From an uncultured Candidatus Poseidoniales archaeon (lineage in GTDB: Archaea > Thermoplasmatota > Poseidoniia > Poseidoniales > CAYMED01): a stretch of 64,000 nt of DNA. Shown here one piece after another: positions 10,202 through 31,402 of the stretch. The notes beneath the pieces were generated by a model. That model did no database searches. It saw only the letters and a program-made list of their open reading frames with translations, and had not been told where the DNA came from. The stretch spans positions 661 through 64,660 of the forward strand of contig CAYMED010000012.1 of assembly GCA_964389655.1 (NCBI GenBank). Reading direction: 5' to 3'. The translations under genes were made by a program, and so were the position numbers. Each line of letters starts with the position of its first letter. Position 1 is the stretch's first letter.

Positions 10202-11653
10202 TTGTTAATGTTGGGTATATTCGCGTTGGCCGAAACTTCGGGCGAGAGTACAAGTGGGGGTAGCATTCTTCTCCTCATTGTTGTTGCAATAACACTGATT
10301 TTCGTGGCTATGCTGATGTTCTTTGCAAGCAGATACAAAAGGTGCCCTTCAGATCAAATTCTTGTCATATATGGTTCTGGCCCGGGCCTTAAAGGCCAAC
10401 CAGCTAAGACCTTACATGGCGGTGGTGCATTGGTATATCCCTTATTACAAGACTATGCTTATTTGTCTCTAAAACCAATGACAATCAACATTAACCTGAC
10501 AAATGCCTTGTCTCTCCAAAATATCCGTATCAATGTCCCTTCAACATTTACAATAGGGATCTCCACCGATAATTCCCTCATGCAAAATGCAGCTCAGCGC
10601 CTACTTGGTCTTGCTCCAGCACAAATCGAAGAAATGGCAAGAGAGATCATATTTGGTCAATTGCGGTTGACAGTAGCAACCTTAACAATTGAGCAAATCA
10701 ATCAAGACCGTGATTCTTTCCTGAACATGATTCGAACCAACGTCGATACTGAATTGAATAAAGTGGGTCTATTTCTAATCAACGTCAATGTAACTGACAT
10801 CACAGATGAAGCTGATTATATCGAAAGCATTGGGAAGAAAGCGGCATCCATTGCAGTCAATGCCGCTCGTGTTGATGTTGCCCAAGCAGAAAGGGACGGA
10901 GCAATTGGACAAGCCCAAGCGGACCGCGACCGAGAGATTGCAGTATCAGAGAATGAAGCCTCTTCAGCGAAAGGTGTGAAAACAGCAGAAGCCGACCGCC
11001 GTATCGTCGTTCAAGAACAAGAATCAGAGGCAGTTCGGGGTGAAAATGAGGCAAATGCTTCAATCGCAGGTTATAATGCTGACTTGGCAGAAAAAGAAGC
11101 ATCAGCCCTGCAACGAGCAGAAGTGGCCCGCCGTCTAGCCGAAACAGAGGTCCAAAAGGCCCAATACAGCCTTGAGCAAGAGCGCTTGCGTGCTGAAGAT
11201 ATTGTCCGTGAAAGAGTAACAAAGGAGCAAATTGAGATTGCTGCAGAAGCCGAGGCCCAGCGCCAACGCCTTGTTGCACAAGGTGAAGCGGATGCAATCC
11301 TTGCGAAATATACGGCAGAAGCAGAAGGTATTGAGAAAATCCTAGATGCCAAAGCAGGTGGCTATGAGCGCCTAATAACCGGTGCATCAAATGACGCTCA
11401 GGCAGCAGCAACCTTGCTGATGATCGAAAAGATCGAAAGCATGGTTCAAATGCAAGTTGAAGCAATACGAAATCTCAAGATCGACAAAGTAACTGTCTGG
11501 GATGGGGGGCAAGCAGGTTCTTCTTCGACTGCTAATTTTGTCAGCAGTTTAGTTCAAGCACTTCCTCCAATACATGATGTTGCAAAAATGGCGGGAGTTG
11601 AATTACCACAATATCTTGGAAAAGTCGAGGGAGATATAGAAATTAGCGAATGA
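10202..11653 (+). CDS. Flotillin (SPFH/band-7 family)
   Basis: 483 aa with an N-terminal membrane hairpin and SPFH core, then Ala/Glu/Arg-rich flotillin-type coiled-coil repeats (AQAERDGAIGQAQADRDREIAV; EAEAQRQRLVAQGEADAILAKYTAEAEG). The track start is TTG 10202 and the first ATG is at 10208. Confidence 0.9.
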   Translation: MLMLGIFALAETSGESTSGGSILLLIVVAITLIFVAMLMFFASRYKRCPSDQILVIYGSGPGLKGQPAKTLHGGGALVYPLLQDYAYLSLKPMTININLTNALSLQNIRINVPSTFTIGISTDNSLMQNAAQRLLGLAPAQIEEMAREIIFGQLRLTVATLTIEQINQDRDSFLNMIRTNVDTELNKVGLFLINVNVTDITDEADYIESIGKKAASIAVNAARVDVAQAERDGAIGQAQADRDREIAVSENEASSAKGVKTAEADRRIVVQEQESEAVRGENEANASIAGYNADLAEKEASALQRAEVARRLAETEVQKAQYSLEQERLRAEDIVRERVTKEQIEIAAEAEAQRQRLVAQGEADAILAKYTAEAEGIEKILDAKAGGYERLITGASNDAQAAATLLMIEKIESMVQMQVEAIRNLKIDKVTVWDGGQAGSSSTANFVSSLVQALPPIHDVAKMAGVELPQYLGKVEGDIEISE

Positions 11654-12532: not shown

Positions 12533-12616
12533 ATTCGCGCCTCAAGTTTCGCGGAGCGAATGGTAAATATGAATTCATGTGCTGATATGTTCATCAGAAA
12601 ATATCCTTCTGCTGAA

Positions 12617-15358
12617 TTATTTCTCATCTGCTGGCGCTTTAATTTCTTCAATGAGTTGATCGCCCCACCGCTTCCACGCCATTTGGTAAAATTCAGATAA
12701 CTCAAAAGAAGCTCCATCCCATTCAACCCTACTGCTTCCAGACTTCTTTGCTTCACGAATCACACGCGCCGCACCCTGAACGGTCATTTTTGTCTTTCTC
12801 GCAGGGGCTTCCTCTACTAATTGCTCTTGAGAAACGGTTGTCTCCTTTATGCCCTCTTCAACACCTTTCACATTTTTCTTTTTTGCAGCTGTTTCCATTT
12901 TTGCCACTCGTTTTGCTTCAGCATGTTCCTCTTTTTCCCGTTTTAAGCGCTCTTTTTCCTCTATTTTGGCCCGCTTCAGTTTCTCTTTAGCGAGTTTCTT
13001 TTCTTCTTTCTTTGAGATGCCTGTTTCTTCGGGCTCCATTTGTTCGGGTTGTGCATTCTTAATGGCAGTGACTAAATCATCCCCCCATCGCTTCCATGCC
13101 ATTTGATAGAATTTTGACAATTCATAACCAACGCCATCCCATAATACGGACTCTTCACCTGCATTCTTTGCTTTCCGTATTGCTAATGCCACACCCTCAA
13201 CCGTCATTTCAGTTTTTATAGTTTCAGCAGGTCCAATTTGTTCTTGCATTACCCCTTTCTTTTGCAATTTCTTTTCTTCGGCAATTCTTGCCCGCTCTGC
13301 CTTTGCATGAGCTTTCAAGTCTGCCTTTTCTTGTTTTAGTCTCTCTTTTTCTTCAATTTGAGCGCGCTTTGCGGCAGCTTTCACTTCCCGTTTTGACATG
13401 CCGTCTTGCAGATCACTTTCAGGTGATTCCGACTCCTCAATCGGGTTTTGTAGTGCTGTTATGAGCCCATCACCCCATCGTTTCCAGGCCATTTTGTAGA
13501 ATTTTGCCAAATCATAGCTGACCCCTTTCCATTGGATGGTATTTTCATCCAATGCTTTGGCTGAGCGAATCATCCTTGCTGCACTATCCACATCCAATTC
13601 TTCTTCCGGTTGTTTGAGCACTTCGAGAAGGTCCTCACCCCACCGTTGCCATGCTGATTGGTAAAATGCCTCCAATGGAACAGGCCCACCACGCCAAATC
13701 ACATTCTTACTTTTATCCGTCTTTGCCTGTTTAATCGCATTTGCCATCTCAATTAGAAGGGCATCTTCTTCATCTATTTCGTCAGAACTTGATTGAACAT
13801 CATCCGCCCTAACTCTTCGTGCACCAAGTTGTCGTTTTCTTTCGGGGATTTCGAATACACACACCATGGCTGGGGGTGTGTTTGTACTCACCTGTGCTTG
13901 GTATTCAGATACCGCTTTTCCTATCTGGATTCGGATCCTAAACACACAAGGGTCGGTAGCCCCTCTCTTTTTCGGCTGCTTGTAGTGGTGAACCCAAACC
14001 TGATAATTTCCAGGCTTTGCAGTGGCTTCTGGCCAAACAACATTCTCGATTGGCTTTTTAGAATCCCCCCGCACATTCATGTCCACATTGAGTTCTCCTC
14101 CGAACTCATCGGTCTTTTTCCCATGATATATTCGGCCAGCATCGGGGGTTAGAATATGGAGGTCGAGGTCATTTCGATCAAACCACATAAGGGAAACCTG
14201 TATCTTTCCTTTTCCGGCACCTTCTCGTTTCAAGCGCTTGAGGAATTCGGCCTCTAAATTCTTCTCATCAGGAACAAGGACTCCAATTGGATCGGGCGGG
14301 TTTTCAATGGCCAACCTTGCCTGCTCTTCCAAATCTTCGATTTGATCGTCACTCCATGTCTTTCTAGCTTCGAGTTCCTCTTGTTCTTTTGCTGCAATCG
14401 CCTCTTCCCTCGCAACAATCTTTGCCTGTTTCTTTTCTTCCTTTAGAAGGTATTTTTCATTCTTTGTGATGTCTTTATTCATTCTCTTTTCTGCTTTATC
14501 AAGAGACCTTTCCGTTAATTTAAGCCGCTTTCTTTCTTCAGGTAAACTGACTCTCTCTCGTAGCCTCTCACTGGAAGAAAGTAGCAACTCGTTTCTTTTT
14601 CTGAGGATCTCATTTGAGGCTGAAACAAGTCCATATCTATATTGGATTACAGTATCTCTTTGTCGGAAAAACCGATGATATCTTCGCGTCATTCGATATT
14701 CCAGTGTGTCGAGATGATGTTTTGAATGAATCCAAATATCAAGGGCCTTTGAAACACCAACCCGGAGGTTGTGCAGGCGTCTATGTTCTGACACTGAAAA
14801 ATTATCCAATGCCGCAGCAAGTTCATCTTGTAGTGATGCAACTCGTGTGATCCGTTCACCAAGTGCATCCTCCATAGCATAGAATACATGCCGTCCCGTA
14901 GAGCCAACTTTTGTCCCAATATTCTCAACTTTCTCGATTTTCTGCTCGACTTCTCGTTTGATAGTAACTAGACGCTCAAGCCCTGCTTCTGTGGCTTCAG
15001 CACCAGATAGCACCATAAATGACCGTATTGTACGTATTTGCTTTCTCAAACTAGATAATAACTTGAGGGGCGAACGAAGCTCAGCTGCGGTAAAACCCGT
15101 ATGTTGCAAAGCGTTGACGGCTCTTTGCGCACTTGCCTCAATGTGCTCAATAAGGAGGTCAATATCAGCAATTGATGTTTGAGTCAGATCAAGGACTTTG
15201 ATTCTCATGTTTGATAATTCATTAATCCCTCCAGCATATGCTGCCATCGCATCATCCATCATAGGGGGGACTCTTCGCTGGAACTTTGCTAAGCGGGCAA
15301 TGCCATATGCCGTCCCTATACCTAGCGCAGCTGAGGGCGCCAATACGGGGTCGATCAT
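12617..15358 (-). CDS. Orphan 913-aa protein coupled to arlJ: N-terminal hydrophobic segment, long coiled-coil-like region, beta-rich module, 4 Trp-rich repeats
   Basis: The track ORF runs to 15439, but its first 27 codons lie inside arlJ. The in-frame ATG at 15358-15356 shares one nucleotide with the arlJ stop (TAATG) and follows a GGAGCTGGGGGA purine tract. The N-terminus from that ATG reads MIDPVLAPSAALGIGTAYGIARLAKFQRR. The middle module reads KIQVSLMWFDRNDLDLHILTPDAGRIYHGKK...PIENVVWPEATAKPGNYQVWVHHY. The C-terminus holds four FY(Q/K)(S/M)AW(Q/K)RWG(E/D) modules. Confidence 0.7.
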   Translation of the reverse strand: MIDPVLAPSAALGIGTAYGIARLAKFQRRVPPMMDDAMAAYAGGINELSNMRIKVLDLTQTSIADIDLLIEHIEASAQRAVNALQHTGFTAAELRSPLKLLSSLRKQIRTIRSFMVLSGAEATEAGLERLVTIKREVEQKIEKVENIGTKVGSTGRHVFYAMEDALGERITRVASLQDELAAALDNFSVSEHRRLHNLRVGVSKALDIWIHSKHHLDTLEYRMTRRYHRFFRQRDTVIQYRYGLVSASNEILRKRNELLLSSSERLRERVSLPEERKRLKLTERSLDKAEKRMNKDITKNEKYLLKEEKKQAKIVAREEAIAAKEQEELEARKTWSDDQIEDLEEQARLAIENPPDPIGVLVPDEKNLEAEFLKRLKREGAGKGKIQVSLMWFDRNDLDLHILTPDAGRIYHGKKTDEFGGELNVDMNVRGDSKKPIENVVWPEATAKPGNYQVWVHHYKQPKKRGATDPCVFRIRIQIGKAVSEYQAQVSTNTPPAMVCVFEIPERKRQLGARRVRADDVQSSSDEIDEEDALLIEMANAIKQAKTDKSKNVIWRGGPVPLEAFYQSAWQRWGEDLLEVLKQPEEELDVDSAARMIRSAKALDENTIQWKGVSYDLAKFYKMAWKRWGDGLITALQNPIEESESPESDLQDGMSKREVKAAAKRAQIEEKERLKQEKADLKAHAKAERARIAEEKKLQKKGVMQEQIGPAETIKTEMTVEGVALAIRKAKNAGEESVLWDGVGYELSKFYQMAWKRWGDDLVTAIKNAQPEQMEPEETGISKKEEKKLAKEKLKRAKIEEKERLKREKEEHAEAKRVAKMETAAKKKNVKGVEEGIKETTVSQEQLVEEAPARKTKMTVQGAARVIREAKKSGSSRVEWDGASFELSEFYQMAWKRWGDQLIEEIKAPADEK
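12620..13770 (-). repeat. Four diverged tandem coding repeats (~45-aa Trp-rich module plus K/E-rich linker) inside the 913-aa gene
   Basis: Protein copies: NVIWRGGPVPLEAFYQSAWQRWGEDLLEVLKQP, TIQWKGVSYDLAKFYKMAWKRWGDGLITALQNP, SVLWDGVGYELSKFYQMAWKRWGDDLVTAIKNA, RVEWDGASFELSEFYQMAWKRWGDQLIEEIKAP. The similarity is also visible at DNA level near 12660, 13085, 13470 and 13635. Confidence 0.85.
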
Positions 15359-17163
15359 TATCCCCCAGCTCCAATAAACGATCCAACAGCAAATGACATA
15401 ACAAGGTCGACAATTAATCTTGTAATCGCAGCAGTCCATGTCAGAATGGCCATTTGTCCTAGGGTTCCAGCAACCTTCCCTCCACGTAACCTCGTGGTTA
15501 CAAAGGACATGCTAGCAATTTGAGACAATATCAGAAAACTAATTATTATTTGAAAGCTCAAAGTATTTCCTTTTACGGCGGTTGAATCAGATAATACGGG
15601 GATCCCAAAGCCCGCTAAATCTCCAAGCAAATCCCTTCCACCCTCAACAGATGTGGGGTCTGTAATGATTCCTGCCATTGATTGCCCTAAAGTTACAACA
15701 ATGTGGAGGGTGATGTCAAGGCTAGCGATTGTCGCTATCAATGTACCAAGTGCCACACCCCACATGGAGCCAGCAGAGATCATTCTTCTCTTCCTAAGAC
15801 TGTTGAGGTTCGTTGTAGTCTGACTAACAATATCTGCAACATCCGCTGGAAGTCCAGAGGTTTGGGCACCTTCGATATAGATGCGATTGAAACGACTAGA
15901 CATGGATGAATTAACTTCAGCGCTGAAATAATCCCATGCCCTATCACTGTCGATCCGCGTTGCCAATCTCCTTTCGAGACGTTCAATATCTGCGGAGAGT
16001 ATTCCAAAATCGATGCCCCTAAGGGCCTTCATTGTTGCACTCGGCTCAGAAGATCTCGCTTGAGCCGTTCCTCCAAGAGCACGAATAAATACGGGGTATG
16101 ATTCGTCCCGTCGCCGAATCCTTTCCTCTTCAGACTTCTCATACCTAGAGGCGAAAAGGAATGGGGTAAAAGGCAAGGCAGCCATCACCAAACCCCACCT
16201 TGCAAATGAATCAGCGACAAAACTGGGAGCAAGAATTGCAAATAAAATAACAAAGCCTCCAACCATAATCCCAATTGTGATTGAGATATTCCATATTCGA
16301 GAGAAGCGTTGTCTGTATGGAGTAACTAATCCATCCTTTGCAAATAGCGGTTCTGCGGGTATGACTGTTCTAAAAATAACAGCAGAAGCAACTTGTACAA
16401 AGAAAAACATTGCTCCTGAAAAAAGAACCCATCGCAACTGAGCTACTGCGTCTAGCCCGCTGTTTGGAGTTCCAGTAATGAATAGGACAAGATGAATTCC
16501 AGATACAACAAGCAAAAAAATCATTGCAGTAGAGAGTGAGATATAGAGCTCCTTGAGTATGTCTAGCGTTTCAAGCCTCGTGTCATATAGCGTTTGATAC
16601 TCTTGCCTAACCGTCACTAATTCACCAGACATGTATTCTTCAAGTGATTGACCGGACTCTATGCTGAATGCCATCCTGTCTAAAAAGTCAGCGAATAATG
16701 GGCTCGGCGTCTGGTTTGCAACAATTCGTGCGGCTTCAGGAAGGCTAGTATGCCATCGCTGGACCATCGTTTCAATTCGTTTTACTTCAACCGCGAGTTC
16801 TCCATATTCTGACATTTGACGTAACATGTCGAACATGCTTTTTGGGCCGACTTCGCCGAGGGCAAGAATCCCCATTCGAGTTACAAACATATGCATGTCT
16901 TGCTCAATCAAGGCCGCAGATTGCCGAAATTTAAGAATCGGCCATCCCATCACGATTAAGAGTGCCAATAGAGGTATGGCAAATGCATTGAGAACTCCTA
17001 CAGCACCACCAAGGATTGTTGGGAATAAGAATGCTAAAATGACACATGCTATGAAAAGACTACCTGCGAGGGGCGTGCCTAATCTCGTAAGCCTATGAAC
17101 GGGGTCTACTCCGATGCGGGCATAGGCAGCACCAACGACTTGCATACCCTGCATTCGTTCCAT
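15358..17163 (-). CDS. arlJ: Archaellum membrane platform protein ArlJ (FlaJ)
   Basis: 601-aa polytopic membrane protein with two cytoplasmic helical domains alternating with TM clusters (T2SF/TadBC-like layout). It directly follows arlI, and a GAGGGAG SD-like motif lies 5 nt upstream of the ATG. Confidence 0.85.
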   Translation of the reverse strand: MERMQGMQVVGAAYARIGVDPVHRLTRLGTPLAGSLFIACVILAFLFPTILGGAVGVLNAFAIPLLALLIVMGWPILKFRQSAALIEQDMHMFVTRMGILALGEVGPKSMFDMLRQMSEYGELAVEVKRIETMVQRWHTSLPEAARIVANQTPSPLFADFLDRMAFSIESGQSLEEYMSGELVTVRQEYQTLYDTRLETLDILKELYISLSTAMIFLLVVSGIHLVLFITGTPNSGLDAVAQLRWVLFSGAMFFFVQVASAVIFRTVIPAEPLFAKDGLVTPYRQRFSRIWNISITIGIMVGGFVILFAILAPSFVADSFARWGLVMAALPFTPFLFASRYEKSEEERIRRRDESYPVFIRALGGTAQARSSEPSATMKALRGIDFGILSADIERLERRLATRIDSDRAWDYFSAEVNSSMSSRFNRIYIEGAQTSGLPADVADIVSQTTTNLNSLRKRRMISAGSMWGVALGTLIATIASLDITLHIVVTLGQSMAGIITDPTSVEGGRDLLGDLAGFGIPVLSDSTAVKGNTLSFQIIISFLILSQIASMSFVTTRLRGGKVAGTLGQMAILTWTAAITRLIVDLVMSFAVGSFIGAGG

Positions 17164-17176
17164 TAATCTCCCTCAA

Positions 17177-18895
17177 TCAACTATCTTCAGGAACCCACGA
17201 CTCAATCGCTCTTCCCATAACCTCTAATCCCGCTCCATAGAATATGGCTAGCATTGTTTTGACATCTTCATAGTGCGTCAGATTTCGATCAACCATGCGC
17301 TGTATGATCTGGGCCCTCTTGTCCAATTCCTCATACACGAGTCGCTTGTTCGAAAGGCCCATTTTTGGGGCGATTCTTTCTTCTAATATGTATGATTGAT
17401 TCCGCCCACGGAAGAAGTGCTTGTCTCGAACCGGATCCCATTCAAAAACACCCCTTGTTAGGATCCCGTCACTGATTTTATTGTAGCCAAGGATTTCATC
17501 AACGCCCGTAATTCTTCTTGCAATCATACCCCCTGGCAATTGCACAATGGTTTGGAAAACGGCTAGGTTAAGGTTGTCAAAGAATCTGGCCGGGACATTA
17601 ATTGGGTCTCCCGTAAATCTCTGAATCATTTTTAGAATAGATGATGCGTGAAATGTGCCCAACACAGCGTGTCCAGTCTGCATTGCTTGGAATGCGGTGG
17701 AGCCTTCCTTCCCACGTATTTCCCCTATAATAATATATTTTGGCCGGCTCCTTAAAGCAGCCTTCAATAAGTCAAAGACATCGACCTTTGCTTCTTCATT
17801 TTTTGACTCACGTGTGACTAGCCTTTGCCATACCTTGTGTGGAACTTTAACTTCAGGAGTATCTTCGGCACTAAATATCTTGAAGTGGTGTGGGATTAGG
17901 GGCAATGTTGCATTTAATGTGGTGGTTTTTCCTGAAGCGGTTTCACCAGATACTAACATGGATTGTTCAAATTCATAACACATCCAAAGGTAGGCCGCAA
18001 GTTCAGATGACAATGTTCCCCATTGGATAAGCTGAATGAACGAGATGGTTTCTTCAGCAAATTTTCGAATTGTAAATGAGGGCCCGAATAAAGAAACATC
18101 ATCGCTGAATATGATATTTATTCGACTCCCATCAAGAAGGGCCGCATCCACAATTGGTTTTGAATCAGAAACGGGTCTTCCGATTCTCTCACTCATAGAT
18201 CGTAAATATCCCCCAAGCACGAGCCTATCTCTAAAGCGGATATTTGATAAGACCGTTCCGAATACTTTGTGATCCATATTTACTGACCGCAAACCAACTG
18301 AGTGTATGTCCTCAAGAAACTCATCAGAAAGGAGCGGTTCAATGGGCCCATTTCGAGTTAAATCCCGAATAATGATATATTCAATCCGATTTTTCTGATC
18401 TAAAGTCATCTTGATCTTCTTTTTCGCAAACCCAAACCGCTCAGCCAAACTTGTACCTCCGCTCGACTCTCCCTCTGACTGATCGAGAATTGTGTATCTT
18501 TCAATCATCGTTGTCAAAACTTGTTCAAATTCATCATCGCTTGAAAAAGTAGGAGCCGTGGGTGCTTGTTCGAGAATGATTTCCATTAATTCCTTTTTCA
18601 TTAGTTCTTCATCTTCATCGAGGCCGGGTTCAACAGCCATCCAAAGGGTCTGTGTGGGGTTCGTTTCATCAGCAGGGGGTTGGTATATGTGCACAAAAAT
18701 AGGTGGCTTTGTAATGTACAAGAGGTTTCTAGGTTCCACAGTTCTTGCATCTCGATCTAGTTCCCCATAATAGATGGGCCGACTACCATAACGATCTTGA
18801 AAATCATCAATCCACGTTCGAACATGCGGAAATGCATTCATGACATCATCTAGAGTTTTTAGTTCATCAACATTAATATCACTATTAGCCAACAT
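17177..18895 (-). CDS. arlI: Archaellum motor ATPase ArlI (FlaI)
   Basis: Secretion-superfamily ATPase motifs: Walker A GETASGKTTTLNA, Walker B region PKYIIIGEIRG, His box GHAVLGTFHA. The track ORF extends to 18946, but ATG 18895 (MLANSDINVDEL) lies 1 nt after the arlH stop and is the more plausible start. Confidence 0.9.
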   Translation of the reverse strand: MLANSDINVDELKTLDDVMNAFPHVRTWIDDFQDRYGSRPIYYGELDRDARTVEPRNLLYITKPPIFVHIYQPPADETNPTQTLWMAVEPGLDEDEELMKKELMEIILEQAPTAPTFSSDDEFEQVLTTMIERYTILDQSEGESSGGTSLAERFGFAKKKIKMTLDQKNRIEYIIIRDLTRNGPIEPLLSDEFLEDIHSVGLRSVNMDHKVFGTVLSNIRFRDRLVLGGYLRSMSERIGRPVSDSKPIVDAALLDGSRINIIFSDDVSLFGPSFTIRKFAEETISFIQLIQWGTLSSELAAYLWMCYEFEQSMLVSGETASGKTTTLNATLPLIPHHFKIFSAEDTPEVKVPHKVWQRLVTRESKNEEAKVDVFDLLKAALRSRPKYIIIGEIRGKEGSTAFQAMQTGHAVLGTFHASSILKMIQRFTGDPINVPARFFDNLNLAVFQTIVQLPGGMIARRITGVDEILGYNKISDGILTRGVFEWDPVRDKHFFRGRNQSYILEERIAPKMGLSNKRLVYEELDKRAQIIQRMVDRNLTHYEDVKTMLAIFYGAGLEVMGRAIESWVPEDS

Positions 18896-18896
18896 C

Positions 18897-19613
18897 TCAG
18901 GCCACCGCCGTAATGTCAAGGATGAAACCCATATTTGGTTCAACACGCCAACCTATAACGGACTGAATTGTCGCAGCAGCGCGCTGAAATCTCCGAACAA
19001 GCATGGTTCGCTTTAACTCCCCACCAATTATGTCGGCTGATAAATCGAGAAGGATTTCACATGATGTCGATAACCGATGCATCATCCGATCATCAATTTC
19101 GGTAGGGTCGCAGGCAAGAATGAGCAGGTGGTCATTGTCTGCAAACCTCCGTAAGCGATGGATGAGGGCGGCAGCCTCCGCATCACTCGTATCATGGCTT
19201 CCAGAGGTATCTACATCACCAATCAATGAGGATGCAGTATCAATAACAACAATTTCACTTTCCTTCACACGCTTCTCTTCAAGGATATCATCGATACCAA
19301 CCTCAGGCCGTGGAGCATGGCGCATGCTAAATGGCGATAATACGGTCAAACGCCCAGCATCTGCATGGGGTTCAACATCATACCCTAGGCTCTTCATCTG
19401 TTCAAACCAGCCGCGAGTACTCGATTCTGTTGTCGCCACTACAACTTTATGCTCATTTTCAAGAAGCCCATATGTAAATCGCTGAGTTAAAACACTTTTT
19501 CCCTCACCCATTTTTGCGCTAAGAACCATCATTGATCGTTTAGGAAGGAGGCCCCCTAATGCAATATCAAGGCTATCTGATTCAATAGCAAATTGAAACC
19601 CATCAGATGTCAA
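18897..19613 (-). CDS. arlH: Archaellum KaiC/RecA-like protein ArlH (FlaH)
   Basis: 238 aa with LGGLLPKRSMMVLSAKMGEGKSVLTQRFTYGLL (Walker A) and IVVIDT (Walker B-like). It sits between arlG and arlI. The TTG start overlaps the arlG end by 11 nt. Confidence 0.8.
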   Translation of the reverse strand: MTSDGFQFAIESDSLDIALGGLLPKRSMMVLSAKMGEGKSVLTQRFTYGLLENEHKVVVATTESSTRGWFEQMKSLGYDVEPHADAGRLTVLSPFSMRHAPRPEVGIDDILEEKRVKESEIVVIDTASSLIGDVDTSGSHDTSDAEAAALIHRLRRFADNDHLLILACDPTEIDDRMMHRLSTSCEILLDLSADIIGGELKRTMLVRRFQRAAATIQSVIGWRVEPNMGFILDITAVA

Positions 19614-20100
19614 GGCGAATCACCCCTGAAGTCACACAAGTGCCAGTTGAACCCGCCTTTGTTCCATCAACTGTATTCGAAGTGATGACCAACACCCCTT
19701 CATCACCATCTGAGTATGATGTGAAATCAGCAGTTGCTACAACCTTGTATATTTCTCCAGTAACCCAGTCACCTCCTGAAAGGACTGAACTAGACGCTGA
19801 CTTGAGCGTCAAACTGCTCCCATCAAAAAGAGATATTGTGGTCGTATCAAGTTCTTCAGTACCAGAGTTGATCAGATAAAATGTAATTTCATCAGGGTTT
19901 GGAACCGTGTTGACATCCACATCCAAAGGGTCTCCTGCGATTGATACTTCACAGCCTTCATCAAGTGCGGCTTTAATCGCTTGTTTTTCAGAAATTAATA
20001 CGAGCTCCGTAAAATTCTGGATAATAACTGCGGAAGCGATGCCTGCGGTAATTAAGGCGGCAACAAGCATGATGATACTACTAGCCCCACCATCAGCCAT
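19603..20100 (-). CDS. arlG: Archaellum protein ArlG (FlaG)-like
   Basis: 165 aa with an archaellin-like hydrophobic N-terminus (GGASSIIMLVAALITAGIASAVIIQNF) and a small beta-rich domain. GAGGGA lies 6 nt upstream of the ATG. The F versus G assignment rests mainly on gene order. Confidence 0.55.
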   Translation of the reverse strand: MADGGASSIIMLVAALITAGIASAVIIQNFTELVLISEKQAIKAALDEGCEVSIAGDPLDVDVNTVPNPDEITFYLINSGTEELDTTTISLFDGSSLTLKSASSSVLSGGDWVTGEIYKVVATADFTSYSDGDEGVLVITSNTVDGTKAGSTGTCVTSGVIRLDI

Positions 20101-20112
20101 TCATATCCCTCT

Positions 20113-20745
20113 CTAGAGTGCCACTCCTTTTGTAGCACTTAATGCATTAATTGCAAGCCTGCTCCACGCAGTGCTCCCACCAGTACTAATGTCTTTGACT
20201 GCGATAACCTCGCCCGAAAAAATGTACTCGTGCGTTGTATATTTGCTTGAAATTTTTTCTGGCGGGCCTCCATCAACAGAATACCACATGTCACTAATTG
20301 GAATTGTTTTTTCTCCATCGTTGGTGATGTTGAACCAAAGAGCATTGCCTTTTGTCGTAGAAAATACTGCATTCGAATCGCCCGCATGCGAGGGAGTAAT
20401 TACGACAATACCTGTGTAATCCTTTCCGTATTCTGTGATTGTAATGCTATCAATCTCTCCTGACATATCTACAGTATATGATGCACTAAAGCCCGACCCC
20501 CCCCCACTGGCAGTTAGCGTGCCTGAACTATATGTAGCACCACAAGGTGAACAAGAAACAGTAAGAATTGCGTTTGCATCACGCGTCGCATTATTGATGG
20601 TGATTTTCGCTTTTGGCTCTTCAGCCTCTTTGATTGTTTCAAGTGCTTCATCGAGGCGATGCCCAACGGATGTCAAGGCCATTGCAAGTGCAATCATGCA
20701 TGCCGTGCCTACGACAAGAGCGCCGACTCCAACGCTCGCACCCAT
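20113..20745 (-). CDS. arlF: Archaellum protein ArlF (FlaF)-like
   Basis: 210 aa with an N-terminal hydrophobic helix (VGVGALVVGTACMIALAMALTSV) and a Ser/Thr-rich beta domain. It starts 3 nt after the upstream stop, with a GGGGAGAG SD. The assignment rests mainly on order and size. Confidence 0.55.
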   Translation of the reverse strand: MGASVGVGALVVGTACMIALAMALTSVGHRLDEALETIKEAEEPKAKITINNATRDANAILTVSCSPCGATYSSGTLTASGGGSGFSASYTVDMSGEIDSITITEYGKDYTGIVVITPSHAGDSNAVFSTTKGNALWFNITNDGEKTIPISDMWYSVDGGPPEKISSKYTTHEYIFSGEVIAVKDISTGGSTAWSRLAINALSATKGVAL

Positions 20746-20748
20746 GTT

Positions 20749-21621
20749 TTACTCTCCCCGTGCTCCACCCGTCCTGTCTCTCCATCTTCGGAGATAATCG
20801 TGGAACGCGAGAAGGCTGCGTTGGCCGATACGCCCAGCACGGGGGCCAATCTCTTCTCCAGTCGAGAGTGTAAGGGATAGTAGACTTCTCATTTCTAATG
20901 CTTCATCCCCCATGATCAGGCCACTCCGCTCCGCTTCATCGACGAAGTGTAGGCACGCGCCGGGTTGCATATCAGCTAACAAAATCGCGGCCAAATGCGA
21001 TACAGTAATGGGGCCACTAGGGTCACTTCCAACTTCAGCCGCTGCCGCAATCTCTTCTTCAGTCAGTTCAAGGAATGGGTTGTAGGGGAGAAAGGCGAGT
21101 TCGTGTCTTCCAATCCCTCCTCGGGGTGGAGGTCGCGGCGCATTCTTGCCATTAACTGGGGCCCAATCACCCTCGGTTCCCTCAGTTGGGGCACTTTTTT
21201 CTTCAATTTTCACATCTTCTTCACCATCTGTAGTGGCGGCCACGGATGAGATTTTGGAGACCAGTTCTGGCAACGTCTCCATTATCCGATCTTCAAGTCC
21301 AGCGACCTTATCAACGACAGTTTCGAATTTAGATTCCATCATTTCTTCCAGTGCCTTTGTATCCGCTGGGGCCGAATCTTCACCGAACCCAGCGGCAACA
21401 CCCCTCCTCCCACCTTCGGAATCATCACTTCTTCCTCCAAATACTGCTCTTGTGGGCCCACTTGAAATGACCCAAGCATCTTCAGAACGAAGCATTCCTT
21501 GTTCAGCTACAACAACTTCGGAAAGGTCAAGGTCTGATATTGCAGAAAGACGATTGCTATCCCGCTCACGAATGACGTCTGCGTCCTTCTTACCTTTTCC
21601 GAAGAGCCAGCGTTTCGCCAT
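20749..21621 (-). CDS. Archaellum accessory protein in the ArlC/D/E slot (weakly ArlD/E-like)
   Basis: 290 aa with no TM. The N-terminal half is acidic, Gly-rich and probably disordered. The C-terminal ~110-aa helical domain (ELAFLPYNPFLELTEEEIAAAAEV...HFVDEAERSGLIMGDEALEMRSLLS) only loosely resembles the FlaD/E domain. GGAGGA lies 6 nt upstream of the ATG. Confidence 0.4.
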   Translation of the reverse strand: MAKRWLFGKGKKDADVIRERDSNRLSAISDLDLSEVVVAEQGMLRSEDAWVISSGPTRAVFGGRSDDSEGGRRGVAAGFGEDSAPADTKALEEMMESKFETVVDKVAGLEDRIMETLPELVSKISSVAATTDGEEDVKIEEKSAPTEGTEGDWAPVNGKNAPRPPPRGGIGRHELAFLPYNPFLELTEEEIAAAAEVGSDPSGPITVSHLAAILLADMQPGACLHFVDEAERSGLIMGDEALEMRSLLSLTLSTGEEIGPRAGRIGQRSLLAFHDYLRRWRDRTGGARGE

Positions 21622-21646
21622 CTTATATCCTCCATAACTCCCCCCT

Positions 21647-21667
21647 GGGGTGAGCGTAACTCACCCC
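21647..21667 (-). terminator. Perfect 8-bp stem-loop (GGGGTGAG-5 nt loop-CTCACCCC) between the second archaellin gene and the accessory genes; candidate attenuator or RNA-stability element
   Basis: Read directly from the sequence: ggggtgag cgtaa ctcacccc at 21647-21667, starting 20 nt downstream of the arlB stop (21687-21689) and ending 26 nt upstream of the next ATG (21621). No U-tract follows it. Confidence 0.45.
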
Positions 21668-21686
21668 TGAATGGGGAATCACGCGC

Positions 21687-22328
21687 TCAGACGACGAATG
21701 TGCCGGCAGTTACGACCCCTTTGTAACTCAGGGTTTCGTAAGTCGTTCCGCCGCCTTCAACATGGAAATACAAGGTGTGGTCTTCGTTTGCGGTTGGATC
21801 ACATTCTGTGCCTGCATTCTCTTCAGTAACGATGGATGTATAGTATGTCGTTCCAACACTGAGCGATGTCACCGCAGTCTTCGTGCTATCATCGAGTGCG
21901 ATTGCTCCAACGTCTTGTCCCCCAGCCGAAAGCACGCCTTCTACAAGGCCCATGGCTTCAGCACTGGTGGCGCAAAATATTTGGTAGGCGATTTTTGCAG
22001 CTGTTATTGTTTCACTTCCTGGGGATAGTTCAAAGGAGATTTTGATTCCCTGATCATCTGCATTACCACCCTGGCCATCGGCATCTGCAGCAGAATTTTC
22101 GTCAGCATCAGTGACTATGTGGACGGAAAGAATCGTGATTTTTCCCCCGATTTCCTCTTTGGTGTCTTGCCCAGTCTGCTGGGCATTTTGCTGAAGCTTT
22201 TCTGCCGTTTGGATAATCACGCTGGACGCGACAGCAGCAACTAGGACAAGGGCGATGAATACGATCATTGCGCCGATTCCAATTGCACCCTCTTCCTCGC
22301 GTGTATCATTGATTTGTTCCATATTCAT
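21687..22328 (-). CDS. arlB: Archaellin (ArlB/FlaB), copy 2
   Basis: 213 aa with a class III signal peptide plus the conserved archaellin N-terminus EEEGAIGIGAMIVFIALVLVAAVASSVIIQTAEKLQQNAQQTGQDTKEEIGGKI. Its ATG overlaps the upstream archaellin stop (ATGA at 22328-22325). Confidence 0.9.
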   Translation of the reverse strand: MNMEQINDTREEEGAIGIGAMIVFIALVLVAAVASSVIIQTAEKLQQNAQQTGQDTKEEIGGKITILSVHIVTDADENSAADADGQGGNADDQGIKISFELSPGSETITAAKIAYQIFCATSAEAMGLVEGVLSAGGQDVGAIALDDSTKTAVTSLSVGTTYYTSIVTEENAGTECDPTANEDHTLYFHVEGGGTTYETLSYKGVVTAGTFVV

Positions 22329-22957
22329 GTTACCACCTCTCCAAGCGTTCCTGAAGTATATTTCAGAGTTTCAAATGTAGATCCTCCATTTGGCACGTGA
22401 ACATACATGGTGTGCTGGAAACCCTGTGCTATTTTGCACCCGTCGTTATTGGTAGTAACCCCGGCGGTCGTGCCAAAGTCATCATACAGATCAGTAACGA
22501 TCACGCCTTGTTGTCCAGCACTAATTGTGGCCATAGCACTACCATCTGTGGCTGTTGTGGCATTTGTACCATCATCAATGTGTTCGTACAAGGATGCGAC
22601 CCCTTTGATGAAACCCCCATCTGCGGCAGTGCAAGTTATCTGAATTACAATGTCTGCCAAGGTAATTGTTTCAGATCCGGGGGATGTTTCAAACGTGATT
22701 GTCAACTTATAGTCGTCATTCACGTCAAGGGCGGTGGTGATGGCGGAAAGAATAACGATCTTTCCACCGATCTCATCGCGGGTGTCTTCTCCGGTATTTT
22801 GGGCGTTCTGTTGCAAATTTTCCGCAACCCCGATAATAACGGATGATGCTACGGCAGCGACTAAAACGAGCGCAATAAACACAATCATTGCGCCGATTCC
22901 AATCGCACCTCCATCATCCCGATCACTGTCGGGCTGCGCGTTGCCTATTGGGTGCAT
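22325..22957 (-). CDS. arlB: Archaellin (ArlB/FlaB), copy 1
   Basis: 210 aa with N-terminus DRDDGGAIGIGAMIVFIALVLVAAVASSVIIGVAENLQQNAQNTGEDTRDEIGGKI. It is the first gene after a 192-nt AT-rich intergenic region. Confidence 0.9.
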   Translation of the reverse strand: MHPIGNAQPDSDRDDGGAIGIGAMIVFIALVLVAAVASSVIIGVAENLQQNAQNTGEDTRDEIGGKIVILSAITTALDVNDDYKLTITFETSPGSETITLADIVIQITCTAADGGFIKGVASLYEHIDDGTNATTATDGSAMATISAGQQGVIVTDLYDDFGTTAGVTTNNDGCKIAQGFQHTMYVHVPNGGSTFETLKYTSGTLGEVVT

Positions 22958-23149: not shown

Positions 23150-24136
23150 TTATGATGAAACGTAGACGTCTCCCAAATCCGCATCGGGGCGGATCCAAAC
23201 ATTTGCCTCTTCACCCGCCTTTAGTTTGATGATGGCAGGATATGTTTTCAGCAAAAACCCCCTAGGCACCCACGGAGATAATACAACATTTCTGAGGGTT
23301 GTTAGTGATCTATTTTGAACCCGCATTGCGATCCTTACATCTCCGTGCTCAACAGTGTATCCGGTTGCAATTGAAACTGTGCGCATAAGGGGGATTGAAT
23401 CTGACCCTAAACTCCGAGATGGGATTAGATTAAACCTGAGGTTGACTGCAGCACCGGGGTCTATTGGGGGGACATCAATTTGCGTTGGGCTCCCCTCCCA
23501 CCCATTTGGAATTGGCGGCGCAAGGACCATTTCGGGCATGGTTGACTGCCCATCATTTTCAATTCTAATGACTAGGATTCCGTGATTCGAACCAGCGGGC
23601 CACCTTGCCTCCACTCCCATCCAAAATGCTCTATAGTGGAATGGATTGAATCTTGATGGATCATTTCCACTAACATCTTCAATCCCACCCTGCATGGATG
23701 TGATTGCATCCCCAAGTTGTCCATCCTCAACATGTAATGATGCTCGATGCAAACATGAAACCAGTAATTTCCGATCATCTTCAGTGGTTTGAATATCTTC
23801 TAAAAGAATTCGAATGAGCGCTACATTTCGCTTCATTTTCATAATTTCATTATCCAATGATCGAATACGGCTCCTCGCATTTTTGACCTCGCGCCGGGCA
23901 CGGATGATGCGGTGGTCATTCAAATCTTCCTTTGCACGATGTATTGCGTCTTCAATCGCTGTAATTGGGTTGTCTGTACTCCCGTCTCCACTGAGTTCTC
24001 GAACAGCACGCTCTACCTCGGCGGCGTGTTTGCGAATCTTCTCAATTTGGACACTTGAAGAGCGCAAGGCACTCTTCGCATCACGAATACCCATTTTGTC
24101 CTCATCCTCAGATTCATTTTCTTCGGACTCTGTCAT
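23150..24136 (-). CDS. Signal-less coiled-coil protein with two CARDB/NEW3-like beta-sandwich segments
   Basis: 328 aa with an acidic N-terminus (MTESEENESEDEDK) and a ~130-aa helical heptad-like region. It then carries ILVIRIENDGQSTMPEMVLAPPIPNGWEG...IDPGAAVNLRFNLIP and IAMRVQNRSLTTLRNVVLSPWVPRGF...LKAGEEANVWIRP. Its ATG directly abuts the upstream TAG, and a GAGAGGGGGGGG purine tract ends 6 nt before the ATG. Confidence 0.6.
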   Translation of the reverse strand: MTESEENESEDEDKMGIRDAKSALRSSSVQIEKIRKHAAEVERAVRELSGDGSTDNPITAIEDAIHRAKEDLNDHRIIRARREVKNARSRIRSLDNEIMKMKRNVALIRILLEDIQTTEDDRKLLVSCLHRASLHVEDGQLGDAITSMQGGIEDVSGNDPSRFNPFHYRAFWMGVEARWPAGSNHGILVIRIENDGQSTMPEMVLAPPIPNGWEGSPTQIDVPPIDPGAAVNLRFNLIPSRSLGSDSIPLMRTVSIATGYTVEHGDVRIAMRVQNRSLTTLRNVVLSPWVPRGFLLKTYPAIIKLKAGEEANVWIRPDADLGDVYVSS

Positions 24137-27100
24137 CTAAACCCCCCCCTCTCTATTGGCAGGACTTACATTTTCTTCTGCATGGAGTATCTTGTCAACA
24201 GCGGTTGCAGGTTCTCCGAGTTGATCTGCCAACATCATTGCTTCACTCTGAACATCTGCGATTTGTCCGAACGTGACTCCATATAATCGATCAATAAGTG
24301 TCAATAGGCCGATGATCAAGAGGGCTTGGCCAATAATAGCAAATAGTAATGTGGTCAGGTTTTGGGGGTCTAGGATGAATATTGGGGGTATACCAATGGC
24401 AATTAGGAGGAATGGACAAATTGAGAGGCCAAGTATGATTGTTAAAGAACCCCTCATCCTACGCAGTTCAGAGGCATGGTTAACAAATGAACTATTCAAT
24501 CCCCTTCTAGCCAATTCATGATCCTGATGGATAACCAACAATTCTTCTGAAGACCACCATACGATGGCGAGTATCCAAATAGAGGTTAGGGCCAACAAGA
24601 TCCACCCTCCGCTTTCTAGAATTCCAATGTGGAAAGCAAAACCAAATGCGGAAGAACCCGTAAATGCAGCGCCCAAACGCAACTTCTCACGATCTTCTTC
24701 TTTTCCCATGGAAGTGAGTGCAATCGTGAGGCCAACGGCAGCAAGGGTTGCAATAATCGCAGCAATCATCGGTACACTCCGAGATACAACTGAACCCTTG
24801 AACTCCATCATGTCATTTGCTTGAACATTAGAAGATACGCCCTGAACGTCCAATTCTACCTTGCACGTGAAATCCTGTTTTGTGGCCCACCATGGCATGC
24901 TAATTTTTTCAATAGCCCATGTAATTTCGACGTATTCCAAAGGAGGCACGGGGGGGACCTCTATTTGTCGCCCACCCTTGAGTGAGACTCCATCACACGT
25001 CGCTATGGCGGTTGTTGAGGGGATGCCTGCAGTCCCTGAATTGAAAATTTCAACAACAATGATTCCTGCCTCGCCTTCTCTCAAAGACAAACCTTCGAGC
25101 CCCCGCTTTGGCTCTCGCAATATTGCATCCGCCTCCGCCTCCAACCGAATTTGGAGAACTGATTTAGTGGCGTGCGAGATTTCCCCATCCGGTGAGATCA
25201 CTAACATTAGGTCATAACCATCTCCCACAACCATATTTTCAGCAGGAGGGAGTTCCATTTCAATAATAATTTGCCCATGCCCCCATCTGTCGATAGGCAT
25301 CAATTCAACAGCGACGTATTGGGGCCCCAAGTCGTTTGTTTGTCCCTCCACCACAATGGAGTGAAATATCCATTCTTCTGCTTCTTGCGCAGATGCACTG
25401 ATTCGAGCAGCCTGAACTGCTGAGAAATAATGGTCAGGTATGACTTGATCACCTAAGCGAGCAAGGGTTGGAACGTGAGTCCAATCAACAATTATTTTGG
25501 GTTTTTCTCCTGGGCTGACATAGATGGGTCCATCAAAGCTCATCCGCTCAATGCGTAGATTCCGAAGCAAGGATATGCGGCCACGAATTTCATCAGAGAC
25601 GGGAACAATGTCTAGGGTAAGGTTGGTTGTTTCTTGATGATAATGGTCTGGAGCAATGGGCGTAATTTGAACTATAAATGAAACAATTTCTGTGCGGGGG
25701 AGGATAATGGGTTCCGAAGGGACAGTAACATTCCAGCGTGTGGGGTCTAATGTGGTTGCGTTAATCTTTGCCTCAAGGCTTGATAAAATACCGTCATTTC
25801 GAACTTCAAACGAGATATTTTTCGTAATCCCAGGCCGAATGTCAACTAATGTCGGAGGCGTGGAAACAAAAGTTACTACAAATGGCGTTTCAACAATTAC
25901 AATTGTGGACGCATTTACGGCGACTTCATTGTTTTCATCCATCATGTTCACGAGCAAGTTGGTGCGTTCAGCAGAATCGAGAATTTGCGTTGAATTTAGG
26001 GGGGGAACGGTAAATGTAAGGTCCAGTGTGACTGATACTGGAAGATTATCTGTTCCTGGCGGCTGTATTGTAAATATAGTCGGCCCAATACCTAACGACC
26101 AAGCAGCATTGTGATCCGAAACCGCTCTAAGGTTTTCAGCAGTATTGCCGCGGTTTGTGACTATCACTTGTGTTGTGGTTGTTTCCCCAGGCGCGATGAT
26201 AATCTCAGATGGCAAATCGATGGTTAAATCATGCGTTTCAAGAATTTCTATTGCTAGGGATACAACATCAAGTGGATCTGAACTATCTGGTGATATTAAT
26301 TCGACCAGGGCATCATATGCTTCATCCGAACGTGCATACATTGCACTACTGATTTCAAGACGCAACAATCTTTCTTCGTTTGGGGCAATTAACACGCCAT
26401 CTGGTGTAGATACATTAATTGTGATGGAATTCGAATTAATGGATGCAATCCTGAGGGCAAATGTGCTAGGTGCGTTACCTGTGTTTGTAGCTTTGATTAG
26501 AAGTGATGTTGTCGACCCACTTTGCATCCGCGCATCAACTGTGTCGGTTGGGGACAAAACCGCAGCAATGGTGCGATTTACAGTAGTTACATAACTGTGG
26601 GATGCCAGAAGACTTCCAGTATCAATTGACCTTACCTCGATATCAATCATCCCTACTGTTCCTGCAATGACTCCTTCGAGGGGCATAATATCCGCATAGA
26701 ATGATTGCGAATTCACATTTGTGGCTGGATAAGATGCCATAGGGGGTGAGATGATTCCTGTTTGTGAGCGGGAAAGTAAGATACTCCACCCATTTGGGGC
26801 ACTTGCAATTAAATCGTATGCGGATGGGTGATTGCCGATGTTTTCGACACTAATGCTAAGGCGTCCTCCGTAGGCTGGATCCAAATTAAGTGGTGCTGCA
26901 TCAATTAGATTTGCCCGCTCAACTTCAGGGATGCGAACAATGAGTTGTCTGATGATTGCTTGACTTGAGATTGTGGTTAATGCGCCATTTGGCGTGACCG
27001 TAAGTTCCACAGGTATGGCTAAATCTCCTGCAAGGGGTAATCCATGCACTCCCGTGGGCAATGGGCCCAATATGGCAATTTCAATTTCAGCTTCATCATC

Positions 27101-30109: not shown

Positions 30110-31402
30110 CTACCGCCCTTTCCCTTCTCCGACCCAAGTAGGGGGGGGTGCTCTAAGTCGATACACAATCACAAGGATCCGATCTAGCAACAACCCCGTA
30201 ATTCCCAAACCAATCAATAGAATTGCATTTTTCATTCCCCAAAGCGGTGCTAATAACATTGCGATCCCCAACCATCTCGAACAAAACCCTAGGGCAGATA
30301 TGGACCTTGAAAGAAACATTCTTCGTTCTAATCTAGGTACTTCAAGCAACCTTTCTCGCAATTCAGCAGACTTTCCTTTTCCCAATATTTTGAATTCCGC
30401 CACTTCAATCAATAAGCACTCATAAACCCAAATTGAGATGCCCCCTCTATGGCCATCAAGAACCCTGCGGTTGGCCCACATTCTAGGGGCAGTTGCCTTC
30501 CATCCCGCGATAAATACCTGTCGAGCAGCCTTTGAGTCTTCGTGTGATAGGTTAGCTCGGTCAAGGTCTAGTAGAATTCGACCAATATCACGTGTGGCAG
30601 GTAACTCCTTGTCAGGTAACAAAACCTCAACCCATGACTGAGATGGTTCAACCATGCCAATAATCACGCCCTCTGAACTAACGATCCAATCTCTAACCCC
30701 GGGTCCGTTGAGGTCTATTGTTGCGTGTGTGCTTAGCGTGTGTGGTGCTCTCCAAAGAGTATTTGCCTGAGTCCACCCTTCTAGCAATTTGAGCCTATTG
30801 TTCCAAGACCTTTGATCAGATGCTGAGCATTTTCTCTTCGCAGAAACTCTGTGACAGCGTCCAAGAACTTGTCCTAATTTCGTAGCACCATCTTTTGGAA
30901 AATCTCTTATTTCTGAAATTAGATTTTTTGATCCACTTGGCACTTTCAATTGGCTAATTACAATTTTCCCTTCAATACTAACTAGCACTTTAGATGAGGA
31001 TAATCCAGCCCCCTTGAGCACTTTCTTCCGTTCTTCAAATAATTTGGGTGTGCTTCGATGAAGCCGCACCCATTTGCATTCGCCTTTTTGTTCTATGAGC
31101 CAAGTAACTTCCCTTTGGCTGGTGTGTAGAGGGACCATTCCGAAAAGTGGCTCAAAAGAGCCACTTTTTCCATGCACTTTACCACCATTTTTCTTTACAT
31201 CTTCAAGAAAATCCACCCATTCTTCCTTTTCTTTCAAGATTCCTTCAATTAGTAACTGTTTTGTTTGATCTTTTGGTATTGCAACTTTGAGTGGACCATA
31301 TTCCTTGATCTCAACAGACTGCAAAAAATTCGCATCGAGACCTACTAGGGTCTCCATCATAATCTCGGCTAAGGCCTTGTACTCTTCTATTCTGCCGGTC
31401 AA
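30110..31402 (-). CDS. Membrane-anchored protein with weak kinase/APH-like fold cues
   Basis: 430-aa ORF. The track start TTG overlaps the upstream stop (TTGA, 31402-31399), and the first ATGs are at 31360 and 31357. Cues are HATIDLNGPGVRDWIV and ATRDIGRILLDLD. Two C-terminal hydrophobic helices are present (WLGIAMLLAPLWG; AILLIGLGITGLLL). Family not established. Confidence 0.45.
   Translation of the reverse strand: MTGRIEEYKALAEIMMETLVGLDANFLQSVEIKEYGPLKVAIPKDQTKQLLIEGILKEKEEWVDFLEDVKKNGGKVHGKSGSFEPLFGMVPLHTSQREVTWLIEQKGECKWVRLHRSTPKLFEERKKVLKGAGLSSSKVLVSIEGKIVISQLKVPSGSKNLISEIRDFPKDGATKLGQVLGRCHRVSAKRKCSASDQRSWNNRLKLLEGWTQANTLWRAPHTLSTHATIDLNGPGVRDWIVSSEGVIIGMVEPSQSWVEVLLPDKELPATRDIGRILLDLDRANLSHEDSKAARQVFIAGWKATAPRMWANRRVLDGHRGGISIWVYECLLIEVAEFKILGKGKSAELRERLLEVPRLERRMFLSRSISALGFCSRWLGIAMLLAPLWGMKNAILLIGLGITGLLLDRILVIVYRLRAPPPTWVGEGKGR

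Follow-up and report, generated by a model that had tools for sequence, protein, structure and literature searches.

A 913-residue protein encoded directly behind arlJ in a Poseidoniales archaeon: candidate mosaic offshoot of a family of anchored, coiled-coil proteins

The stretch of DNA analysed here (hereafter the window; 64,000 nucleotides (nt) of contig CAYMED010000012.1 from an uncultured Candidatus Poseidoniales archaeon, positions 661 to 64,660 of the forward strand) carries a cluster of archaellum (arl) genes, and directly behind arlJ lies the gene studied here, the target, which encodes a protein of 913 amino acids (aa) at 12617..15358 on the minus strand (stop codon 12619-12617). The listing of open reading frames (ORFs) gives the minus-strand frame 12617..15439 as 940 aa counted from the first ATG; the junction sequence GGAGCTGGGGGATAATG has one base common to the arlJ stop codon and the target start codon, and translation from there yields 913 aa. 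The overlap reads TAATG (15356..15360, minus strand; arlJ TAA 15360-15358, target ATG 15358-15356), with a purine tract (GGAGCTGGGGGA) just upstream, and independent gene callers chose the same ATG, and hence 913 aa, on three public contigs. The first-pass annotation had described a minus-strand ORF with a TAATG overlap at the end of arlJ, and the ORF listing, the junction sequence and the gene callers all bear this out.

The upstream neighbour arlJ (15358..17163, minus strand) encodes 601 aa and was identified by profile match, and searches with family models recognised ArlJ (NF004704, E = 1.6e-108), ArlI (NF058587, E = 9.8e-198) and ArlH (NF052589, E = 1.1e-50). The cluster also encodes an ArlG-like protein of 165 aa, a weakly ArlF-like protein of 210 aa and two archaellins, and its order is arlB-arlB-290 aa-210 aa (F-like)-165 aa (G-like)-H-I-J-target, with all arl genes at 15358-22957 on the minus strand. 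Spacing along this order (in nt, negative values being overlaps) is -4 between the two arlB genes, 65 between arlB and the 290-aa gene, 3 between the 290- and 210-aa genes, 12 between the 210- and 165-aa genes, -11 between the 165-aa gene and ArlH, 1 between ArlH and ArlI, 13 between ArlI and ArlJ, and -1 between ArlJ and the target. These gene-call distances match the junction sizes described earlier, including the 65-nt spacer after arlB, and the terminal position assigned to the ORF was likewise recovered, as it is the last same-strand gene abutting the arl cluster. Judged from the overlap, the target and arlJ are probably co-transcribed. Non-arl neighbours in this genome are equally tight (1563-aa and 328-aa genes, 0 nt; AhpC and a 114-aa gene, 9 nt), and AhpC is the next gene downstream of the target, 84-96 nt away. 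After the target stop codon (window 12533-12616, minus strand), an imperfect inverted repeat of 10 base pairs, TTCAGCAGAA ... TTCTGATGAA, spanning a T-run was noticed by eye, as was an AT-rich box (CATATTTA) about 38 nt ahead of the AhpC ATG; these would fit termination after the target and a promoter belonging to AhpC.

Contigs from at least six samples carry an identical ArlJ, and each of them has an intact target, differing at 0-3 nt (T141I, K254E). An apparent variant of 916 aa (L144:5079-7829) is an assembly artefact: its repeated K/E-rich linker contains a run of N. With so few differences the population is clonal, and selection, expressed as the ratio of nonsynonymous to synonymous substitution rates (dN/dS), is not measurable. 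The GC content of the target equals that of its neighbours. The target is a genuine, stable protein-coding gene.

Going through the protein from its N-terminus (all features on the minus strand), aa 5-23 (VLAPSAALGIGTAYGIARL; 15290..15346) form a weakly hydrophobic, Gly/Ala-rich segment (best 19-residue Kyte-Doolittle mean 1.24), which is followed by the basic sequence RLAKFQRR and is a putative membrane anchor. There are no positively charged residues before this segment and four after it, and this distribution, by the positive-inside rule and together with the K/E/R-rich body, points to a cytoplasmic topology, so that an N-out/C-in anchor with a cytoplasmic body is predicted. The region of aa 31-275 (14534..15268) is an orphan domain of ordinary composition (28% charged and 33% hydrophobic residues), presumably helical, while aa 276-372 (14243..14533) form a helical segment rich in K, E and R, with 48% K/R/D/E, which could be a coiled coil or a single alpha-helix spacer; its only match in the PDB is weak and of coiled-coil type. 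The charged, heptad-like helix of about 330 aa proposed in the first-pass annotation therefore holds for aa 276-372 but not for aa 31-275.

A nine-strand beta-sandwich module follows at aa 373-515 (13814..14242), supported by homologues, by an AlphaFold2 model and by a match to the phage protein family phrog_1735. Its motifs are NDLDLH, L(D/N)VDxN, P(I/V)EN.W and G.Y.V.V..Y, and the nine-strand sandwich was obtained from AlphaFold2 with an alignment of 14 homologous modules, at a predicted local distance difference test (pLDDT) score of 87. The invariant cluster of acidic and amide residues (NDLDL, LDVDxN, PxE) may indicate that the module binds metal.

The C-terminal part holds four Trp-rich repeats (W-repeats), defined by a profile built from the four: repeat 1 at aa 530-587 (13598..13771), repeat 2 at aa 585-643 (13430..13606), abutting the first, repeat 3 at aa 715-773 (13040..13216), and repeat 4 at aa 855-913 (12620..12796), with a pLDDT of 86 in its AlphaFold2 model. 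Between the second and third lies a linker (aa 644-714; 13217..13429) with an acidic start and then a helical spacer rich in K, E, R and A, as judged from composition and DNA repeats, and between the third and fourth a K/E-rich helical spacer (aa 774-854; 12797..13039) that is duplicated with the repeat at the DNA level (family D2). Thus repeats 3 and 4 are each preceded by a K/E-rich helical spacer, and spacer plus repeat were duplicated as one unit; the DNA beneath the repeats is 65-75% identical, with a spacing of 390-420 nt. The joint profile scores 100-109 bits for each repeat, and the invariant residues are W26, G28, L33, F36, Y37, A40, W41, R43, W44, G45 and L48. The model of a single repeat (pLDDT 86) shows a helix, a beta-hairpin and two further helices, i.e., alpha-beta-beta-alpha-alpha. 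The four Trp-rich C-terminal modules noted earlier were thus recovered, but at a length of about 55 aa rather than about 45 aa.

The relatives of the target are those of its beta-sandwich module. In Thermoplasmatota/Poseidoniales, 46 clusters of proteins of 575-930 aa have a hydrophobic helix at the N-terminus, then a coiled coil rich in E, R and A, and then two such modules; the target module is 45-50% identical to both modules of the members with 575-690 aa, and 34% to the module of P0047. Alignment with the Poseidoniales relatives gave per-domain E values of 1e-39 to 1e-46 and 16 invariant columns, so the beta-rich module proposed from the first reading has strong homologues. The paralogues (e.g., P0002, P0038 and P0047) start with a Gly-rich hydrophobic helix, then R/K residues, then the E/R/A coiled coil, and some were named "uncharacterized protein YfaP (DUF2135 family)" by the Joint Genome Institute (JGI). 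The DUF2135/YfaP lead of the first-pass annotation proved to be a reasonable one. Paralogue P0002 passes the PF09906 (DUF2135/YfaP_C) cut-off with 33.7 bits, whereas 13 of the 14 aligned modules are sub-threshold or weak and the target itself stays below the cut-off (15.4 vs. 22 bits, E 0.021, 15 of 48 positions); the DUF2135 match covers the PG.YQV.VHHY strand and not the DLDLH motif on which the lead had been built. In the subtilase P0049 the module stands at the C-terminus.

In phages, aa 380-494 of the target match positions 421-532 of phrog_1735 (E 1.3e-20); against the whole 673-position profile no full-length match was obtained, these positions being the only ones aligned, while P0048 is a full-length member of the family (positions 4-671). 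The module also matches phage family phrog_23228, and tblastn located it in 436 phage records (phages of Salmonella, Klebsiella, Bacillus, Caulobacter and others), including Vequintavirinae/Ackermannviridae-type phages and others. There, it is found in hypothetical proteins of approximately 676 aa in non-structural genome regions (phage loci L150 and L151), and its identity to the target is 27-37%, compared with 45-50% for the chromosomal Poseidoniales genes. Its wide occurrence in phage proteins and at the C-terminus of a subtilase marks the module as a general-purpose domain. A fold search of the PDB with the module returned nothing at E < 1e-3, the top entries being lipoxygenase PLAT domains and 2qng (TM-score 0.49).

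Outside the module, searches were negative. With the N-terminal 275 aa as query, phmmer was run exhaustively against 1.84 billion representative proteins and gave solely the query's own protein; the whole protein, searched against Pfam, NCBIfam, PADLOC and PDB sequences, had no informative match (in Pfam, none at E <= 0.1). The W-repeat has no match among Pfam, NCBIfam or PDB sequence profiles, and its fold search has none at E < 1e-3 (best E 0.67 in PDB and 0.068 in BFVD), in line with the earlier remark that no described family was recognised for the repeat module. For the W-repeat, an exhaustive sequence search was not possible; scanning metagenome and viral contigs by pattern revealed no relative. 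When only the N-terminal 275 aa or the W-repeat profile was used, word-index homologue searches retrieved nothing; they are weak negatives, since such sub-sequence searches missed even the query's own protein, which the full-length query had retrieved. The window holds no paralogue of the target. On these grounds the W-repeat would be a novel domain of about 55 aa, orphan at the level of its fold. The acidic repeats of P0047 (927 aa, locus L004), five copies of about 50 aa lying between its two modules (aa 355-560 and 705-755) with the pattern helix / x-G-hydrophobic / helix, were considered as divergent W-repeats; they are in register, but the scores are not significant (-2 bits in hmmsearch and E 0.5-0.6 in hhalign). 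They do show that repeat insertion after the first module occurs in the Poseidoniales family.

To place the gene in its genomic context, two kinds of neighbourhood were compared. The three paralogues examined share one conserved locus with DeoC, DHQS, shikimate kinase-like and chorismate synthase / purP / Trp dioxygenase / COX15-UbiA genes, and no arl genes are present in these three neighbourhoods; the target lies between arlJ and AhpC, and no gene of the paralogue neighbourhood is found within the window. The arlJ loci amounted to 135 (55 from GTDB species genomes and 80 from metagenome contigs), with flanks of 6-10 kb each. Their ArlJ proteins show 38-54% identity for full-length matches, the GTDB matches all coming from Poseidoniales-type metagenome-assembled genomes, and no relative with ArlJ above 60% identity exists among the species representative genomes or the metagenome collection searched. 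A homologue of the target was detected in none of the 135 loci, whether the phmmer and tblastn query was the entire target, its N-terminus or its repeats, whereas the same loci still yielded the 165-, 210- and 290-aa arl genes (in 18, 8 and 12 loci, respectively, all of closer relatives), the 290-aa gene being recognised at only about 25% identity. The first-pass annotation had asked whether a homologue always follows arlJ; in these loci it does not.

What follows arlJ elsewhere differs between groups. In the closest group it is a gene for endonuclease III (L009-L014) or a 585-aa ORF without family match (L008:11825-13582, minus strand), in either case convergent to arlJ. The protein of this ORF has several N-terminal hydrophobic segments and a long helical-repeat C-terminus; it belongs to no Pfam family and does not resemble the target. 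In MGIIb, a same-strand A24-peptidase-like gene comes next and then a convergent PolD DP2 gene. The former (L016-L061, e.g., L033:11819-12811, plus strand) encodes a multipass protein of about 330 aa, starts 34-60 nt after arlJ, has a GGADVKAL motif and gives near-threshold matches to archaeal peptidase A24 models, hence its description as preflagellin-peptidase-like; no such gene was found anywhere in the window. That it might correspond to the N-terminal region of about 330 aa of the target was ruled out, as it is multipass and A24-peptidase-like and shows no similarity. In the window, 21 kb separate arlJ from the DP2 gene, which in MGIIb adjoins the peptidase gene; this means that the region has been rearranged.

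Taking these results together, we regard the target, with a probability of about 0.5, as a lineage-restricted mosaic offshoot of the Poseidoniales anchor/coiled-coil/module family, acting as a cytoplasmic, membrane-tethered scaffold that happens to be encoded behind arlJ. Its architecture (anchor, basic residues, long helical stalk, beta module) would be that of the Poseidoniales-wide two-module family, whose usual place is a housekeeping (shikimate/purP) locus; in this population the N-terminal stalk would have diverged beyond recognition, and the second module would have been replaced by four copies of the W-domain strung on charged helical spacers. With the anchor presumably inserted N-out/C-in and the entire charged body in the cytoplasm, such an extended scaffold could hold five small binding modules, each at a fixed distance from the membrane, namely one possibly metal-binding beta-sandwich and four W-domains. 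Its place behind arlJ may then reflect rearrangement and tight packing in a compact genome, and the target is probably not a general, conserved or required part of the archaellum.

Several observations weigh against this reading. The one-base stop/start overlap and the purine tract have the appearance of translational coupling inside an operon, and the distance to AhpC groups the target with the arl genes and not with its downstream neighbours. When aa 1-372 of the target were compared with an alignment of 16 paralogue N-termini, hhalign gave a probability of 1.4%, and as the N-termini are without detectable homology, the term "offshoot" rests on the module and the shared architecture. Synteny is uninformative for the N-terminal 275 aa and for the W-repeats, as neither has homologues. 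Furthermore, the hydrophobic mean of 1.24 is weak for a transmembrane helix; the hydrophobic stretch and the following RLAKFQRR described in the first-pass annotation are themselves present.

The same annotation had proposed a new archaellum component analogous to ArlX. In its fullest form, this would be a lineage-specific accessory, a membrane-tethered cytoplasmic scaffold or adaptor around the ArlH/ArlI/ArlJ motor, functionally comparable to ArlX or to a connection with a polar-cap-like structure, and co-translated with ArlJ in order to assemble beside it. The TAATG overlap and the place as last gene of a tightly packed cluster agree with it, as does the likeness of an N-terminal anchor and a long cytosolic helical region to the description of ArlX (PMC8978795); the cluster has no recognisable ArlC/D/E, the 290-aa gene found there matching no family, and Marine Group II (MGII) lacks chemotaxis genes (PMC6461757). 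However, tight junctions are common in this genome whatever the function, and the gene is missing from 135 of 135 related arl loci, whose owners thus build archaella without it. The 290-aa gene, in the ArlCDE position and conserved in the closest relatives, is a more natural scaffold candidate, the target matches no Arl family model, and for the one part where linkage could be assessed, the beta-sandwich module, homologues are mostly unlinked to arl genes, being chromosomal proteins of non-arl loci, a subtilase and phage proteins, an outcome that the first-pass annotation had itself named as refuting its proposal. We therefore consider the proposal doubtful. Its narrower version, in which a single deep-branching Poseidoniales-like lineage newly evolved an accessory made together with ArlJ, with its orphan N-domain and its W-domains, held on rigid charged helices, arranging ArlH/ArlI or linking motors to a structure beneath the membrane, appears unlikely; if true, the accessory would represent an independent ArlX-like solution in a group without recognisable ArlCDE or chemotaxis genes.

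Two other explanations place the protein outside the motor altogether. As a surface adhesin, it would have an N-terminal signal anchor and an extracellular body and would take part in particle attachment with the archaellum, flotillin and thrombospondin-repeat proteins, all three gene types being present in the window (cf. the trait in PMC6461757), and adhesins typically contain beta-sandwich modules and tandem repeats. We nevertheless hold this to be decidedly unlikely, because the charge distribution around the hydrophobic segment predicts a cytoplasmic body, there is no signal-peptide-like n-region, the spacers are K/E/R-rich helices instead of the Thr/Ser/Asp-rich linkers usual for marine archaeal surface proteins, and the occurrence of the module in non-structural phage regions suggests intracellular proteins. 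The phage matches (phrog_1735, phrog_23228 and the 436 records), together with a gene confined to one lineage at a point of broken local synteny, would also be expected of a remnant or cargo of a mobile element or virus, e.g., a defence or anti-defence gene, inserted behind arlJ. This is very improbable given that the GC content is the same as in neighbouring genes, that PADLOC gave no match, that the neighbouring gene calls contain no integrase, repeat or tRNA boundary, and that the closest relatives of the module are chromosomal Poseidoniales proteins and not those of phages.

Among the other genes of the window, a 328-aa gene (23150-24136, minus strand) lies just upstream of arlB and has a coiled-coil N-terminus and a weak NEW3-like sandwich, and a 1563-aa gene (24137-28828), also upstream of arlB and on the same strand, has Ig-like/CARDB repeats. 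They keep their relative position in 28 and 24 arl loci of relatives, respectively, MGIIb included, and are better candidates than the target for accessory or surface genes with a conserved link to the archaellum. At the ArlC/D/E position, the 290-aa gene (20749-21621, minus strand) has no match in Pfam or NCBIfam; it could be a scaffold of ArlCDE/ArlX type that has diverged strongly, and it is a likelier scaffold than the target. A flotillin gene (10202-11653, plus strand), a gene for a thrombospondin type-3 repeat protein (31399-34578, minus strand) and the arl cluster (15358-22957, minus strand) lie within about 25 kb, and their presence in the window corresponds to the gene set for "adhesion" to which Rinke et al. 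drew attention in Poseidoniales; they proposed that MGII archaella serve adhesion, chemotaxis genes being absent, and placed flotillin and thrombospondin genes in the same trait (PMC6461757).

As to significance, overlapping stop and start codons in a compact genome of a marine archaeon are no evidence of shared function, and this caution should accompany similar annotations. If the target nevertheless does act at the archaellum, the cytoplasmic scaffold of the archaeal motor would be quickly replaceable, with a new small protein domain added. Independently of this, the analysis documents a widespread uncharacterised beta-sandwich domain, present in chromosomal proteins of Poseidoniales, in subtilases and in hundreds of phages, and a repeat domain that is orphan at the fold level.

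In comparison with known systems, the beta-sandwich module resembles the C-terminal P-domain-like sandwich of subtilase KP-43 (PDB 1wmd) in a weak motif likeness (NDLDL..P.G ... VENV ... G.Y.V.V.Y, E 0.32), and for KP-43 and for sandwiches of PLAT/C2 type the likeness is one of fold class only (E > 1e-3, TM-scores 0.3-0.5). With PF09906, the target shares the strand "AKPGNYQVWVHHY", which matches approximately the first 15 of 48 DUF2135 model positions, and with phrog_1735 (approximately 670 aa) it shares the module alone, the remainder of that family being absent from the target.

Like the target, the crenarchaeal archaellum scaffold ArlX is encoded in the arl cluster and has a hydrophobic segment at its N-terminus, after which comes a long helical region that is presumably cytosolic. 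ArlX comprises roughly 250 aa; the target is about four times larger, is encoded after arlJ rather than between arlB and arlG, has the beta-sandwich and repeat domains in addition, and does not co-occur with arl genes in relatives. ArlX has a single transmembrane helix and a cytosolic ring-forming domain, binds ArlH/ArlI and is stabilised by ArlJ (PMC8978795). No match to an ArlX or other Arl accessory family was found for the target in Pfam/NCBIfam, in which the presence of an ArlX model was not verified, nor did any ArlC/D/E family model match it, while ArlF/G/H/I/J models matched its neighbours.

Closest to the target is the two-module family of Poseidoniales, with which it shares a module having the invariant NDLDL, P, G.L, N, P.E..W and G.Y residues and the same layout of short N-tail, Gly-rich hydrophobic helix, basic residues, long charged helix and module. 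Unlike the members of this family, the target has one module and not two, an unrelated N-terminal region of 275 aa and four W-repeats, and it lies behind arlJ while the family occupies the shikimate/purP neighbourhood. What appears to be new here, within a protein family that is already known although uncharacterised, is the domain rearrangement, the new N-domain and the new repeat domain.

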